64,000 bases of DNA from Candidatus Moraniibacteriota bacterium (GTDB lineage: Bacteria > Patescibacteriota > Minisyncoccia > Moranbacterales > UBA1568): assembly GCA_016699385.1 (NCBI GenBank), contig CP064974.1, positions 532,466-596,465 on the forward strand, in the 5' to 3' direction. Below are positions 25,012-33,738 of this stretch, one piece after another (within the stretch, counting starts at the first letter, position 1; each line of letters starts with the position of its first letter). Both the position numbers and the translations under genes were made by a program. Under the pieces are notes generated by a model. That model was not told the origin of the DNA, ran no database searches, and worked only from the letters and a program-made list of their open reading frames with translations.

Positions 25012-25461
25012 TCAGATACCTACCAATCGCTTCTTTGCGAGACGGATATTTTCTTCCAGCGTGCGAAGCTCCACTTCATCCTTCTTCGCCTGTATTTCAG
25101 CACGCTCAATCTCTACCTGGATACGACGAAGTTCCGTCCGAAGCTTGCGAAGAGCGAGATCTCGATCCGTCTTCTGACGATTGAGCTTGAGCCGGTCACT
25201 GTAAAAAAGAGACAAATCGGACTCAACACGACGAATAGCCGCCTTCCGTTCATCGGGAGAAAGCGCCTTCCCATGTATATCCGGTCGAGCGGTAATCCGT
25301 GGTCCAAAGAGCGACATAATACCCAGAAAATCAAGAGAAAACAAGAGACCAATCGACACTTCCCAACTTCCCAATAGAATATCGGGAATTCCCATGAAAT
25401 GCAAGCAAACATCACATCCCACCCGTCGCCGTTTCCACGTGCACCGATACTTGCGAAGCAC
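25012..25461 (-). CDS. hypothetical protein with TM segment and C-terminal coiled coil
   Basis: ORF only. LRKLRTELRRIQVEIERAEIQAKKDEVELRTLEENIRLAKK is a heptad-rich coiled coil. Confidence 0.35.
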   Translation of the reverse strand: MLRKYRCTWKRRRVGCDVCLHFMGIPDILLGSWEVSIGLLFSLDFLGIMSLFGPRITARPDIHGKALSPDERKAAIRRVESDLSLFYSDRLKLNRQKTDRDLALRKLRTELRRIQVEIERAEIQAKKDEVELRTLEENIRLAKKRLVGI

Positions 25462-27574
25462 GACTCGGAATACGACTTGTCATAAACTTTGGCCAGAAAA
25501 CCACTTCGATTTTCTGAATATTGGGATAGTCAGCAAAAACAGCCTGCACATCACCCACGCTTTTACCAAGAATATTTTCTTTAATACGTTCAATATCCAT
25601 CTTCTGACCTTTTTCAAATGAAACCCGAGCTTTTATACCAAGCAGCTTCGCAGTGAAATCAGGATGTGGGATTGTATATTCCACATGGACGTCCTCAGGC
25701 TTCGCCCCCTCACCCAAGAGCGCTGCCGCAACGGTACGGACATCGGATTCCGAAAAAACCAAAGCACGTGCAGACACATGTATGCGAAAGTCGAAACTCG
25801 ACGCGACTGCCCCCACACTCGGAAAGGCATCCGAAGAAAGCGTTTCCGAAAGTATCGCATCATCTAAAAGCTTTTCTCCTGGCTGAAGATCTTTTTCCAA
25901 TTCATTGCGAAGCGACTCTGGAAGCGCTTTGAGTGCCGCATCCTTCGCACGAGCGACATCGTCTGCTGAAACAGAAGCAACTGCCCCCTCACCCTCGCCT
26001 CCACCCGAAAAGGCATGCACAGACGATGCCGATATTTTCTCATACTTTGGACCCCCCTTTAAGCCAGGAATGGTGAATGTCGTTGAATCAATATTGTATT
26101 CCTTGCCCGAAGCATCAGCAACTACTTCCGCATCGATCGTCCCGGGAATTATTTTCCCGTCAACTTCTTTCGTACCGGGAATAGTCACACCCTTGGCAAG
26201 ACGGAAAATTTTCCCATCAGGAGACTCAAATCGCGTCGTCGCCACGAGAGATTGCGGACTGCTTCCAAATGTATTTGAAATGGTAATCATACCTCGAGCG
26301 CGCTTATCAGACACCGATGCCTGTCCGGTACTTGGAAACGACTGAACGATGTCCTTCTCCGCTTCCACAACGCGAAGCGGTATATATTTCCCTGAGACGT
26401 CAACACTTTCTTGATCCGCTCGTGCTGATATTTCCACATCAAGAGAAGTGGAAAGCTCTTTCGCAATGACGGTCACATCCGCACGCGGAACAAAAATAAC
26501 AATTGCCACACCAAGTGCCGCCAACAAAGAAAGCGCCCCTCCTCCAAGTAAAATCCATCGAAAGGCATGTGAGTCAGAGTGTCTCTGGGAAGAAGCATCA
26601 GCAGACTCAGTCGCTCCTACCGACTGAGTCGGCGTATCCTTCCGATAGAAACGCGAGAGCGCTCCCTGATCAGGAGATGATGTCTGCTGAGGCAGAACAG
26701 AACCCGGAGAAGGCGAGAATTGTTCATTATTCAAAGGCTGTGGAACAGACTGCAAAGGCGACGGCGAAAGTGGCGTGGTCGGCGCTGGGAAAGTAAACGA
26801 TACTCTTGAGGCAGCATCCGAAGCTGGCTTTGAGGAAAGCGTTCTTTCCGGCATCCGATTCACTCCGCCCGGCTTCTGAGAAATATTGGAACGAGAAGGA
26901 GGTTCCACAGGAGGTAGTTCCGGCGAGGGCGAAGGGGGAGCACTCGACACAGAATTCAGCGCCGTTAATCGCTTCGGAGTCCGATCGCGAACAGGAACTG
27001 ATCGAGGTATCGGCGTTGCAGCTATCGTATTTGAATCCGGCAAACGCAGGGGAACAACCGGCCGAGGAAGAGGCGTGGGATTCTCATCGACCGGACGAGG
27101 AGCAACATCAGCTCTCGGTCCATTTACAGCAAAAAAACTCGATGACCCGATAGATTCAGAATGGAGCCGCGATCCACCCGGAGGAGATACAAGCTGCTCA
27201 GAAGCCGGAAATTGTCCCGACTGAGATTGAGGAAGTCGCGCTGGAAGCGATGGTTTCGCCGACTGATTAATACCCGGAATTCCCTCAAGAGAACCTCTTG
27301 ATTCAATACCAGCCTTCTGAGCAAGCGATCGTCCCTCTTCATCTGGAGTCACAAGACAGAGACGTTTTCCAAGTTTCTTCGCTTCACGCTCGAGAAGACG
27401 AAGGTTGACGAGACTTCGCACAAACAAAGCACGCTTCGGCACAACAAAGAACACATCCGCTTCCGAGGCTTTCCGGAGCCGACTAATCACGGAGATAATC
27501 TCTTCATCCGGATCAATGTAAGCGAGATGTGACATAAAATTATTGTGAGAATTTTGTTTTTGAGAACCTTTCAT
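25412..27574 (-). CDS. large hypothetical membrane protein (720 aa) with cytoplasmic N-domain, Pro/Ser-rich linker, TM, and extracytoplasmic C-domain
   Basis: Long ORF with a central TM (WILLGGGALSLLAALGVAIVIFVP) and a Pro/Ser-rich low-complexity region of about 200 aa before it. No known domain recognised. Confidence 0.6.
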   Translation of the reverse strand: MKGSQKQNSHNNFMSHLAYIDPDEEIISVISRLRKASEADVFFVVPKRALFVRSLVNLRLLEREAKKLGKRLCLVTPDEEGRSLAQKAGIESRGSLEGIPGINQSAKPSLPARLPQSQSGQFPASEQLVSPPGGSRLHSESIGSSSFFAVNGPRADVAPRPVDENPTPLPRPVVPLRLPDSNTIAATPIPRSVPVRDRTPKRLTALNSVSSAPPSPSPELPPVEPPSRSNISQKPGGVNRMPERTLSSKPASDAASRVSFTFPAPTTPLSPSPLQSVPQPLNNEQFSPSPGSVLPQQTSSPDQGALSRFYRKDTPTQSVGATESADASSQRHSDSHAFRWILLGGGALSLLAALGVAIVIFVPRADVTVIAKELSTSLDVEISARADQESVDVSGKYIPLRVVEAEKDIVQSFPSTGQASVSDKRARGMITISNTFGSSPQSLVATTRFESPDGKIFRLAKGVTIPGTKEVDGKIIPGTIDAEVVADASGKEYNIDSTTFTIPGLKGGPKYEKISASSVHAFSGGGEGEGAVASVSADDVARAKDAALKALPESLRNELEKDLQPGEKLLDDAILSETLSSDAFPSVGAVASSFDFRIHVSARALVFSESDVRTVAAALLGEGAKPEDVHVEYTIPHPDFTAKLLGIKARVSFEKGQKMDIERIKENILGKSVGDVQAVFADYPNIQKIEVVFWPKFMTSRIPSRASQVSVHVETATGGM

Positions 27575-31343: not shown

Positions 31344-32957
31344 CTAGGGTGCCACCTCGATAAAATGTCCATCACATTGTTTTGAACCCTCACACAAACG
31401 TCCACAACTATTCTTATAAGTACCCCTGCACTGTGTCGAATTTTCTCCGCTATCGCACACGCACGAAGCAATAGGAATACATGTTGTACCACTTCGGGTA
31501 TATCCTGACTTACACGTATATTCGCATTTCGGTTCAGAACCAAGTGGTGAACTACAAGAGTCTACCAAAGTATTTTGAACATCAGAAGTAAGACCGCTCA
31601 TATCTCCCGAGCATGATACTGCATTTGTCAGAGTAATCGAAGTATTTGATTGACAAGAAAACGTTGGGGAAGGACTTCCAGACACATTCACCGTCACCGC
31701 GCTAAAACTTGGCAAACCGATGTACAACGCTTGAATATTCGCCAGTGATGTCGAAGCAGGACTTCCTGCCGTCACCACACCCTTCGTTCCGGATATGTTC
31801 CCTACTGTTGCAACGGACGGAACTGAAGATGACCACGCTGCACTCGGAGTGACCATTGAATACCCTGTTGTCGAACACGATGGGATACTCGCAAGATTTG
31901 CCCAGTATCGCGCTTCGAGCTGTTGTGTTTGTGTCGGATTCAGAGTAACCGCAGCAGGACAAACCTTGAGGCGAGGAGTTGGACAAACCATCGTCCCATA
32001 CCCACACGAACCTCCACATCCATCACTGCCGAGGTAATGCGTCGTGCAATATGACGCCGGATTTAGAGAACAACTTGGCGTACATGACACTGTCTTACTT
32101 GCACTGCAGGCTGTTCCGGTACAACTCCAGCTCCAGGGGCCCGAACCGGAAACAGCACTCGAGACACCGGCACTACAGCGTTCCGCTACAGTCGATGGAG
32201 CTGTTGCGCGTGTTGTTCCGTTAGCAGTTCCACAAATACCAGGGGAAAGATTCGCACTGCAAGAAGCTGTGCCACAATTCCATGTCCATCCATTCCAATA
32301 GGAACCAGAGTAACGGAAGGCGAAATTCGTCTGCGTTGTGTTGACACAACGGTCAGCCGAAGGAGGTCCTGAGGTTGGATATGTTTTCCCATTTGCCGTG
32401 CCACAGGTGATAGCAGGGGCAGCATCTCGACTTGCGGAGCATGTCACTGTTGGAGATGAGCTATTGAAACATGACCACGTGACTGTCTTCCCTGGCGCAG
32501 GAAATGGAACCGCTCCATTTCCTACAGTGGGAGATGAACCTGATACACAAAGATTACTGGGAGAATATGCTGTATCTGTATACGCATAGTTTTTTGCCGC
32601 TGAACTACAGAGGGAACCACCTCCACTGCTGCCACTATTTTCACATTGCGCAGTTTTACTCAGCATGCACCGCGGAATACTATAGGCACAATCACAGCTC
32701 CCACAAGCTCGTTGCTCACCAACCGTAGAACAGCTCGAACCGGCACTCGGACAACTTACACTGCTTGTTGGCGACCAATTTCCAGAACCTGACGGACTCT
32801 CAACTCCACAAGATTGAGTCAGTAAATTGTTTACAACCCATGTGCTAGCAGCATGTGCCCTTTGTCCGATAAGAAAAAACGAACCAGCAAGAAAAAGAAA
32901 CATGAAAACACTCCGTGATATGTGCAATTTTTTCATTGTAAGTAAAACGCTCTTCAT
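31344..32957 (-). CDS. secreted Cys/Ser/Thr-rich repeat protein with Big_2 (bacterial Ig-like) domain
   Basis: Signal peptide (FMFLFLAGSFFLIGQRAHA), repeated WxWxC...CSAS and CGTANGxT...RC modules, and a Big_2-like stretch VTLNPTQTQQLEARYW...GNISGTKGVVTAGSPASTSLANIQALY. Confidence 0.7.
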   Translation of the reverse strand: MKSVLLTMKKLHISRSVFMFLFLAGSFFLIGQRAHAASTWVVNNLLTQSCGVESPSGSGNWSPTSSVSCPSAGSSCSTVGEQRACGSCDCAYSIPRCMLSKTAQCENSGSSGGGSLCSSAAKNYAYTDTAYSPSNLCVSGSSPTVGNGAVPFPAPGKTVTWSCFNSSSPTVTCSASRDAAPAITCGTANGKTYPTSGPPSADRCVNTTQTNFAFRYSGSYWNGWTWNCGTASCSANLSPGICGTANGTTRATAPSTVAERCSAGVSSAVSGSGPWSWSCTGTACSASKTVSCTPSCSLNPASYCTTHYLGSDGCGGSCGYGTMVCPTPRLKVCPAAVTLNPTQTQQLEARYWANLASIPSCSTTGYSMVTPSAAWSSSVPSVATVGNISGTKGVVTAGSPASTSLANIQALYIGLPSFSAVTVNVSGSPSPTFSCQSNTSITLTNAVSCSGDMSGLTSDVQNTLVDSCSSPLGSEPKCEYTCKSGYTRSGTTCIPIASCVCDSGENSTQCRGTYKNSCGRLCEGSKQCDGHFIEVAP

Positions 32958-33002: not shown

Positions 33003-33566
33003 CTACTGCCCCGATTTCATCATTCCCTCACCAGTCTTTTCTGCACTCATCACGCCCAGCTCTTTCCCCACCTTCTCCCCAATAACATACGCGTCTTCCG
33101 TTGGGTTCGCCTGTGACGTCACTGTCACGGTATCCCCTACTTTGAAGGATTCGGAGAATCCTTCTTTCGTATCTCGTTCGGAAAGAAAGAAGCGATAGAG
33201 TTTGTCGGGGGCCGGATAGAGCAGAGAATCAATGATTGGACTCACTTTGAGATCAAGCTCCATGCCTTTCACATCTTTTTGCTCGGGTACAGCACGAACA
33301 CCTAGTACCTCTCCGGTGACAGAGATATGATTTTGTTCATCTCGCTTCCATCCCATGAGGACTTCTTCGGTCATGACTTCAGAGGGAGGAACATCTTTCA
33401 CATCGTCTTTGGACATATTCGGAGAGTTTGAAAGAGAACTATCCTTATCCATTTCTCGATTAAACCCGCGGAGAGCAAAAGCAACCGCGAGTATCATGGC
33501 GATAGCAAGTGCAACAAGAGACCAAAACAAAACTTTGTTTGATCCTGAGGAAGACTGAAATGGCAT
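33003..33566 (-). CDS. hypothetical membrane-anchored protein
   Basis: N-terminal TM (VLFWSLVALAIAMILAVAFAL) and an extracytoplasmic domain of about 150 aa. No motif recognised. Confidence 0.5.
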   Translation of the reverse strand: MPFQSSSGSNKVLFWSLVALAIAMILAVAFALRGFNREMDKDSSLSNSPNMSKDDVKDVPPSEVMTEEVLMGWKRDEQNHISVTGEVLGVRAVPEQKDVKGMELDLKVSPIIDSLLYPAPDKLYRFFLSERDTKEGFSESFKVGDTVTVTSQANPTEDAYVIGEKVGKELGVMSAEKTGEGMMKSGQ

Positions 33567-33738
33567 GACGTTTTTGTTTTACTGATTATGCATTTGTTTC
33601 GAAAGGAAACAAATGAAAGAAGATACTGTGAGAAGTATAGCATGGAAACTTCTTGTGGGGGAAATTTTCGATACAGAGTAAATAAAAACTGCCCTAAAAA
33701 ATTTAGAGCAGCTTTACTGTAAGAAAATTCTCCCCTCT

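Follow-up and report, generated by a model that had tools for sequence, protein, structure and literature searches.

Which kind of protein is encoded by a cysteine-rich gene of a Candidatus Moraniibacteriota bacterium (GenBank assembly GCA_016699385.1), and do the small cysteine-containing units that recur in it belong to a described domain family? These questions are raised by a gene for a protein of 537 amino acids (aa), which lies in a 64,000-nucleotide stretch of contig CP064974.1 (positions 532,466 to 596,465 of the forward strand; hereafter the window). An earlier note, made from the letters of the window, had read the product as a secreted Cys/Ser/Thr-rich modular protein with a repeat outside the described families. 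The analysis presented here indicates that the protein is of a known kind, namely a Cys-rich secreted surface protein composed of small tandem modules. Its repeat is undescribed as judged from the libraries and PDB searches that were made, and the same applies to a short peptide at its C-terminus (the tail) and to a small membrane-protein gene directly upstream (the partner gene). The repeat looks uncatalogued as far as Pfam, NCBIfam and the PDB show, and it is a widespread and promiscuous extracytoplasmic module. With only a little more confidence than doubt, we take the protein for a Sec-exported, disulfide-stabilised, modular surface protein of the Candidate Phyla Radiation (CPR), which would act as a short fibrillar adhesin or stalk.

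The gene itself is genuine and shows conservation within Candidatus Moraniibacteriota. The open reading frame (ORF) of 537 aa is listed exactly where it had been placed by the earlier note (Table 1), an NCBI protein from a metagenome-assembled genome (MAG) of Candidatus Moraniibacteriota is 100% identical to its product (IPJ67_02655), and the orthologs show 45-66% identity.

The four-cysteine repeat

In the canonical tandem arrays of the distant database matches, the unit comprises 49 aa (consensus CGSANGTTVSSAPSSNLCSAGTASAVSGSGPWTWTCSGSNGGTTASCSA). It opens at CG.ANG and closes at C.A, and the cysteines occupy profile positions 1, 18, 36 and 47, which corresponds to the spacing C-x16-C-x17-C-x10-C. 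A tryptophan (W34) is located two residues before the third cysteine and is part of a W-x-W-x-C motif ('CG.ANG...GPW.W.C'). W34 is present in 100% of the 1,436 complete units that were drawn from 200 proteins, position 32 is aromatic in 93% of them (W 76%, Y 9%, F 8%), and the two residues are at i and i+2 of a predicted beta-strand. Most of the conserved positions of the repeat are occupied by Gly, Pro, Asn and Cys. Units of unrelated proteins are about 50% identical to each other, and the arrays typically contain 5-8 copies (maximum about 30) with a median linker of 8 aa and a period of 58 aa. The pairing of the cysteines could not be read from their joint loss, which gave no signal, with all four being retained in 1434/1436 units.

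The modules delineated in the earlier note (VTWSC..., ITCGTANGKTYP...ADRC, WTWNCGTASCSAN, GICGTANGTTRA...AERC and WSWSCTGTACSAS) are all found in the translation and proved to be real, with matches to a hidden Markov model (HMM) far beyond chance. Their register had to be corrected, since it was shifted by half a unit relative to the canonical arrays. An HMM made from the units of other proteins matches the Cys-rich protein at residues 117-175, 185-238 and 242-293. All three units carry the four cysteines and the tryptophan, and the same columns are invariant across the orthologs. The distant database matches, which reach E-values down to 1e-31 against 5.8 billion sequences, all map to residues ~185-295, and the repeat HMM detected 294 copies in 60 proteins.

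For the comparison with described families, Pfam-A (2025 copy), NCBIfam (June 2026) and the PDB chain sequences were searched, and Foldseek was run against the PDB. Neither Pfam-A nor NCBIfam contains a model matching the query at E<=10, and the repeat region is left unmatched by both libraries even in proteins with five canonical copies and likewise in the orthologs. The repeat profile retrieved only noise from all PDB chain sequences (best E 1.3), as did the full-length protein in a phmmer search of the PDB sequences. An AF2 model of unit 3, derived from a 141-sequence alignment and with a mean predicted local distance difference test score (pLDDT) of 79.9, had 0 Foldseek matches in the PDB at E<=10. 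Literature text searches on repeat motif strings returned nothing relevant to the repeat. These results agree with the view of the earlier note that the repeat is not part of the described domain families, and in particular there was no clean mapping to an EGF-like (epidermal growth factor-like) domain or to a known carbohydrate-binding module (CBM). A single weak match came from a Foldseek search of the unit model against BFVD, namely A0A6J5SE33 of an uncultured Caudovirales phage (E = 2.2, 43% identity over 42 columns), from which some phage proteins may carry the repeat. This lead was not confirmed, as a tblastn search of INPHARED phages was negative, and so was the scan of IMG/VR contigs.

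Several known modules were considered and rejected. EGF-like domains have a six-Cys pattern and about 40 aa, Sushi/CCP domains have four cysteines with an invariant tryptophan between the third and the fourth and about 60 aa, and TSP1 repeats have a WxxW motif and six cysteines. The unit described here has four invariant cysteines, neither the query nor the canonical proteins were matched by an EGF model, and the repeat profile had no match among the PDB sequences. A Sushi/CCP or TSP1 repeat is not indicated by Pfam, and the 49-aa unit has its tryptophan two residues before Cys3 in the W-x-W-x-C context. Known CBMs, including hevein (Chitin_bind_1), gave no model match (E<=10 for the query and E<=1 for the canonical proteins) and no PDB sequence or fold match. 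In its general design, the repeat is nevertheless reminiscent of the Sushi/CCP, TSP1, EGF-like and fibronectin type I/II modules, as it is a small module with invariant cysteines and one tryptophan as well as conserved Gly and Pro residues. Like these eukaryote-type disulfide modules, it occurs in tandem arrays with linkers of about 8 aa, is found strictly outside the cytoplasm and joins up with many other domains. Its most likely mode of action resembles theirs, as a rigid spacer or interaction module held by disulfides. It differs from the Sushi, TSP1 and EGF families in motif and spacing, where the features of the families are textbook knowledge and the comparison made here consisted of library searches. 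Moreover, it is bacterial (plus one fragment binned as archaeal) rather than eukaryotic, and it has no match in Pfam or among PDB profiles and folds.

The distribution of the repeat was determined with a profile from 39 diverse units, which was searched against 1.84 billion representative proteins (clusters at 50% identity). Matches were obtained in 4,910 clusters at E<=1e-3, in 2,556 at E<=1e-10 and in 641 at E<=1e-30. The earlier note had implied that the repeat is specific to the CPR lineage. This was not borne out, as the 4,910 clusters include OmpA-family proteins of Alphaproteobacteria and proteins with RHS, RCC1, PKD or metalloprotease domains. The named carriers belong to Paceibacterota, Moraniibacteriota, Staskawiczbacteria, Alphaproteobacteria and Acidobacteriota, in addition to one fragment binned as Pacearchaeota, and they are annotated as 'hypothetical protein' or by the name of another domain. 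The alphaproteobacterial carriers are OmpA-family proteins, and the repeat is also present in pilin-like proteins. Among 51 sampled repeat proteins, 15 contain an OmpA-like domain, and further partner domains are RCC1 propellers, PKD, prepilin N_methyl, Fib_succ_major, CBM60, GH16, PPC, beta-helix and others. CBM60 was seen in a single protein other than the query, where it forms a partner domain distinct from the repeat. RHS repeats, the MXAN_6640 metalloprotease and DUF1566 are also found in repeat proteins, and no such model covers the repeat itself. The archaeal-binned fragment (P0061), whose 3,193-bp contig bears the label 'Candidatus Pacearchaeota archaeon' (DPANN), has 18 repeat copies; either the repeat also occurs in episymbiotic archaea or the contig was mis-binned from a Paceibacterota genome.

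Gene model, modules, tail and partner gene

The N-terminus of the 537-aa product (MKSVLLTMKKLHISRSVFMFLFLAGSFFLIGQRAHA, followed by AS) is a signal peptide, as had been claimed in the earlier note, with a basic n-region (MKKLHISR), a hydrophobic core and an AXA-type cleavage site between AHA and AS. The hydrophobic stretch at residues ~16-31 is the sole strongly hydrophobic segment according to the hydropathy scan, and no second hydrophobic segment, LPxTG, lipobox or pilin motif was detected in the sequence and hydropathy scans. The public record IPJ67_02655 comprises 440 aa, starts at M98 and covers residues 98-537 of the ORF; it omits window positions 32667-32957 (residues 1-97), which encode the signal peptide and 7 Cys. 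If this gene model were right, the real product would have no signal peptide and its secretion would be an artefact of choosing the longest ORF, and the lack of an obvious Shine-Dalgarno sequence ahead of M1 agrees with such a reading. However, residues 16-97, including the hydrophobic leader and the 7 Cys positions, are kept at the protein level in the orthologs P0003, P0005, P0007 and P0008. The long form begins 45 nt past the stop codon of the upstream gene, and in the syntenic locus L008 the ortholog with a signal peptide begins 35 nt past the upstream gene. Moreover, 33 cysteines grouped in 4-Cys and 6-Cys modules would hardly be expected of a cytoplasmic protein. The conservation of residues 16-97 and the two spacings make the 537-aa form the better one and support a start at M1 (or M8); a start at M98 is very improbable, and the public annotation of IPJ67_02655 is probably truncated at the N-terminus. 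In the syntenic metagenome locus L005/L006 (5573-7179), the ortholog P0006 was called at 392 aa and is preceded by an Arg-rich call of 119 aa, which looks spurious. The N-terminal part of this gene is probably disrupted by a frameshift or an assembly error.

With 17.9% Ser, 10.8% Thr, 9.7% Gly and 7.4% Cys, the composition is also in line with the secreted Cys/Ser/Thr-rich modular protein of the earlier note, which had counted about 50 cysteines where there are 40, the first at residue 50. From the N- to the C-terminus, the modules contain 8/4/4/4/6/2/6/6 cysteines. All these numbers are even, as expected for a fully disulfide-bonded exported protein, and in the family alignment, no module is missing from the orthologs, and the Cys columns of the repeats, the mini-modules and the Ig domain are kept without exception. 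The N-terminal 8-Cys region, which is conserved in the close family only, has no match in Pfam-A or NCBIfam and was modelled with low confidence. The two small 6-Cys modules, A and B, have the pattern C...C...CG..C.GT..C in common and are probably related, as suggested by a comparison with hhalign (probability 86%, E = 4.8e-6). The variable cassette in front of module B contains an EGF-like-looking stretch (CKSGYTRSGTTC), and a Flg_new_2 (InlB B-repeat) domain stands in for it in P0002, a paralog from the same genome, as well as in several orthologs. Residues 430-537, which the earlier note had described as Cys-knot-like, were modelled at a pLDDT of 27-58 and have no match in Pfam-A or among the PDB sequences.

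The central domain had been called a Big_2-like immunoglobulin (Ig) domain. The fold and the family profile bear this out, whereas the Pfam Big_2 HMM (PF02368) is silent on the query at E<=10 and on the orthologs as well. Residues ~330-425 are the sole confident part of the full-length AF2 prediction (pLDDT 73-87). Their best Foldseek match is LigA of Leptospira (8gyr; E = 1.3e-6, root mean square deviation 1.7 A over 99 columns), and further matches are LigB (2mog), a Big_2-CBM56 protein of Paenibacillus (7quz) and the C-terminal Ig domain of lambda gpV (2l04). In addition, positions 11-102 (92 positions) of a nine-sequence family profile (A6) match LigB, 'Bacterial Ig-like domain, group 2' (2mog_A), with E = 1.7e-5, and the alignment takes in the W-S-S...A-x-V...G-x-V-T-A motifs. 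Because the predicted fold matches LigA/LigB and the family profile matches LigB, the domain is accepted as a divergent Big_2-type domain. The Ig-like beta-sandwich predicted for residues ~329-426 is shared with the Big_2 systems LigA/LigB and intimin/invasin and with gpV, and as in the Lig proteins it is part of a secreted surface protein. In contrast to the Lig-type domains, it is not arrayed in tandem but occurs once, its divergence puts it beyond the reach of the Pfam HMM, and it has a family-invariant pair of cysteines, C333 and C361, which may form a disulfide within the domain.

The protein ends with the tail HFIEVAP. In all 11 members of the family, the very C-terminus conforms to [HP][WFY]xE[VI][AR]P (e.g. 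HFIEVAP or HWKEVAP). Outside the family, the motif W.E..[PNY] is located within the last nine residues of 9 of 191 repeat proteins (P0043, P0045, P0077, P0089, P0128, P0149, P0154, P0170 and P0200), whereas 0.035 proteins are expected from the internal frequency of the motif, which amounts to an enrichment of about 250-fold. Examples are ...SLPQWREVSPF, ...PLPKWTEIAP and ...PIPKWQELSPY, with the pattern [LP]P.W.E[VI].P(F/Y), and the named carriers outside the family are Paceibacterota, which also belong to the CPR. The tail often comes after an acidic or Gly-rich linker or straight after a repeat unit. It forms the final 6-9 residues (7 in the query), and no transmembrane segment follows it. 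The sorting-domain models of NCBIfam gave 0 matches for the query and 8 tail-bearing proteins, and the literature searched on sorting signals and disulfide adhesins of Patescibacteria contained nothing relevant to the tail or the repeat. Judged from its sequence and position, the tail may be a surface-retention or sorting signal of CPR proteins. Like the LPXTG/sortase, PEP-CTERM/exosortase and GlyGly-CTERM signals, it is short, invariant, position-specific and present on secreted proteins that are otherwise unrelated. Unlike these signals, it has neither a transmembrane helix nor a basic tail behind the motif, it has no NCBIfam model match, and an enzyme that would process it was not found.

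The partner gene is located 45 nt upstream of the Cys-rich gene. It encodes a protein without cysteines, which has no match in Pfam or the PDB. Homologs of 170-190 aa with 49-61% identity (E about 1e-52) are found directly upstream of each ortholog that was examined (six loci), namely at L001 2725-3249, L003 7520-7948, L005 4930-5457, L007 1573-2106 and L008 6001-6531 in addition to the window. The family comprises 11 proteins among 5.8 billion, all of them close relatives. One MAG has two pairs of partner and Cys-rich genes, and the genome of the window has two Cys-rich paralogs. In a consensus scan, the two genes are not separated by any minus-strand terminator-like site, and a terminator-like hairpin lies in the interval between khpA and the partner gene. 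The hairpin is likely to mark the 5' boundary of a two-gene unit, and the partner and the Cys-rich gene are likely to be co-transcribed, as far as can be told from the sequence. The loci L008 and L009 (CAYQPQ010000017.1 and CAYQPQ010000015.1) are titled 'uncultured Bdellovibrionales bacterium', yet they are syntenic with the window and encode partners that are 59-61% identical to that of the window; their taxonomic label or binning is probably wrong.

Proposed role and alternative explanations

After cleavage of the signal peptide, the mature chain would be a string of small, independently folded modules with even numbers of cysteines. The proposed order starts with the 8-Cys region as a tip and continues with the three repeats, a 6-Cys mini-module, the Big_2 Ig domain, the swappable cassette, the second 6-Cys mini-module and the [WF]xE[VI]AP tail. 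Placed between anchoring domains (OmpA-like domains or pilin N-termini) and diverse distal domains in other proteins, the repeat would most likely serve as a rigid, protease-resistant and disulfide-stapled spacer, in which the aromatic W-x-W pair might offer a face for ligand binding, and the C-terminal peptide may mediate retention at the surface. From these features we infer that the protein is disulfide-bonded, located at the surface, active as a stalk or adhesin and retained there via the tail and/or the partner. An adhesive or glycan-binding function, as envisaged in the earlier note, is plausible from the architecture.

Flg_new and Big_2 count as stalk domains in the framework of fibrillar adhesins, in which roughly half of the candidates have no known anchor (Monzon et al.; PMC9210967). 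The Cys-rich protein resembles fibrillar adhesins in having a signal peptide, three tandem units and a Big_2 domain (Flg_new_2 in the paralog) that could form a stalk, and a Thr/Ser-rich sequence. Moreover, its domain-free N-terminal tip could be the adhesive part. It differs from fibrillar adhesins in that it has no LPxTG-type anchor or C-terminal transmembrane segment and in that its stalk unit is disulfide-based and uncatalogued. Cys-rich extracellular proteins have also been proposed to mediate attachment in the CPR, for instance in Peribacteria, where they have an average length of 1,655 aa, are encoded in a block of 14 genes and show weak resemblance to Cys-rich repeats of Myxococcus (Anantharaman et al. 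2016; PMC4736985). Both sets of proteins come from CPR organisms and have a signal peptide, about 7% Cys and no functional annotation. The protein described here differs in having a defined 49-aa unit and a paired gene for a small membrane protein, with the sets being compared by description. Furthermore, disulfide-forming enzymes are common in CPR genomes (10.1101/335083).

Several observations weigh against a short fibrillar adhesin or stalk. No ligand, adhesive domain or anchor was recognised by any library (Pfam-A, NCBIfam). For a fibrillar adhesin, 537 aa and only three repeats are little, and the full-length AF2 model has a mean pLDDT of 48.8 and is confident in the Ig domain only. The repeat may be catalogued in other InterPro member databases, in CATH/ECOD/TED or in AlphaFold DB clusters. 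The neighbourhood gives no functional hint, as it contains housekeeping genes only and no pilus, sortase or secretion genes, and the topology of the partner is ambiguous by its flanking charges. Finally, tail-bearing proteins of Paceibacterota are encoded without a partner neighbour. The tail might conceivably dock onto the partner. The idea that the partner is a general receptor of the tail is weakened by these Paceibacterota tail carriers and by the tiny size of the partner family, and because the former lack the partner, tail and partner are separable features.

The main alternative is that the repeat is a lectin-like binder of carbohydrates or peptidoglycan, which would attach through its exposed W-x-W, in a multivalent manner, to glycans of the host or of the cell's own wall. 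In hevein and other small disulfide domains of the CBM type, exposed aromatic residues stack on sugars, and the aromatic position 32 together with the invariant W34 on a predicted beta-strand could provide such a face. The identity of about 50% between units of unrelated proteins is tighter than usual for pure spacers, a tandem and multivalent layout is typical of lectins, and the repeat co-occurs with OmpA-like domains (15/51), which bind peptidoglycan, as well as with CBM60, GH16, Fib_succ_major and a cellulose-binding C-terminal domain. However, no CBM or hevein model matches, and the solved structures, including CBMs and hevein, gave neither a profile nor a fold match. In a domain of 49 aa, at least one tryptophan is likely to be part of the buried core, and the residues that are conserved, mostly Gly, Pro, Asn and Cys, suggest a structural role. 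Furthermore, the partner domains are heterogeneous (RCC1, PKD, pilin, RHS and protease), as for a generic spacer. Taken together, a lectin-like repeat is a possible reading, though one on the doubtful side.

It is also conceivable, though quite unlikely, that the protein contributes to the structure of the envelope, for example as an S-layer (surface layer)-associated protein or as a wall protein of cell division, and that it has a housekeeping role together with its partner in the dcw/ftsA-enolase block. Indeed, the pair lies between PBP-MurF-KhpA (PBP, penicillin-binding protein) and enolase-PfkB-FtsA, and this placement is kept in L005/L006 and L008. The partner is a membrane protein, and the two genes are separated by a short gap and would be transcribed together. 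However, the pair is also found next to RNase HII-L32-NusB and, in a third context, between a malic enzyme and a carboxylesterase. Because these two contexts are unrelated to the first, the pair moves independently of the dcw genes, as a unit of two genes. Paralogous pairs within a genome and swapped cassettes are more typical of variable surface proteins, and the Pfam-A and NCBIfam scans revealed no S-layer (SLH) or wall-binding domain. A disulfide-stabilised stalk or short adhesin is the reading that we prefer to both the lectin-like and the envelope explanation.

The CPR or Patescibacteria are thought to live attached to hosts, and no part of this lifestyle is less well understood than their surface proteins. 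A repeat that is present in about 5,000 clusters and invisible to Pfam and NCBIfam leaves thousands of proteins 'hypothetical' over most of their length, and a curated model of the repeat would improve their annotation at once. Moreover, the conserved C-terminal peptide is a candidate means of retaining anchor-less surface proteins in the CPR, and the two-gene unit, which consists of a membrane protein and a secreted Cys-rich protein with swappable cassettes in its paralogs, could serve as a model for surface display in these bacteria. The most far-reaching proposal combines two claims: that the repeat is a new and widespread extracytoplasmic domain family with a fold absent from the PDB, and that the P-x-W-x-E-[VI]-x-P-type tail is a hitherto unrecognised CPR retention or sorting signal without a transmembrane segment, which in this lineage is perhaps read by the partner or docks onto it. 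We consider it unlikely that both parts hold jointly. The locus fills a gap in the catalogues and supplies hypotheses; it does not overturn the current understanding and would not surprise a specialist.

Features and surroundings of the locus

The features of the Cys-rich gene and of the adjacent interval are compiled in Table 1.

Table 1 Coordinates of the features in the window, with the evidence for each of them (numbering from the first letter of the window)
Feature	Coordinates	Strand	Evidence
Whole gene, secreted Cys-rich modular protein, 537 aa	31344..32957	minus	ORF list; stop codon 31344-31346
Signal peptide, residues 1-36	32850..32957	minus	Sequence and hydropathy scan; conserved in full-length orthologs P0003, P0005, P0007, P0008
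N-terminal lineage-specific 8-Cys region, residues 37-116	32610..32849	minus	Cys positions; conserved in close family only
Repeat unit 1, residues 117-176, degenerate, 10-aa insertion, four Cys	32430..32609	minus	Repeat HMM E = 4e-7; alignment with canonical units
Repeat unit 2, residues 185-238, CGTANGKTY...WTWNCGTASCSAN	32244..32405	minus	Repeat HMM E = 1e-6; alignment
Repeat unit 3, residues 242-290, near-canonical, without the usual NGG loop	32088..32234	minus	Repeat HMM E = 9e-14
Small 6-Cys module A, residues 291-328, C..C...C...CGGSCGYGT..C	31974..32087	minus	Conserved Cys columns; hhalign with module B
Big_2-type Ig-like domain, residues 329-426, invariant C333 and C361	31680..31973	minus	Model pLDDT 73-87; Foldseek; family profile
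Variable cassette, residues 427-497, 6 Cys	31467..31679	minus	Family alignment; Pfam Flg_new_2 in P0002, P0009
Small 6-Cys module B, residues 498-530	31368..31466	minus	Family alignments; hhalign with module A
C-terminal tail HFIEVAP, residues 531-537	31347..31367	minus	E534 and P537 invariant in all 11 family members
Partner gene, 187-aa single-pass membrane protein, transmembrane segment ~12-32	33003..33566	minus	Homolog directly upstream of every ortholog examined
Terminator-like hairpin, khpA/partner gene interval	33685..33715	minus	Consensus scan only

Two further observations concern the window beyond the pair. An ORF of 720 aa without a Pfam match is located directly downstream of ftsA (25412-27574, minus strand), and an ORF of 727 aa, which has no Pfam match either, occupies the same position in L005 (10949-13132), so that the ORF may be conserved next to ftsA. 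Moreover, all 2-kb bins of the window (1-64000) have a negative GC skew, and the genes examined at 22.7-37.3 kb are all on the minus strand. The uniform skew and gene direction fit a single replichore with strong co-orientation.

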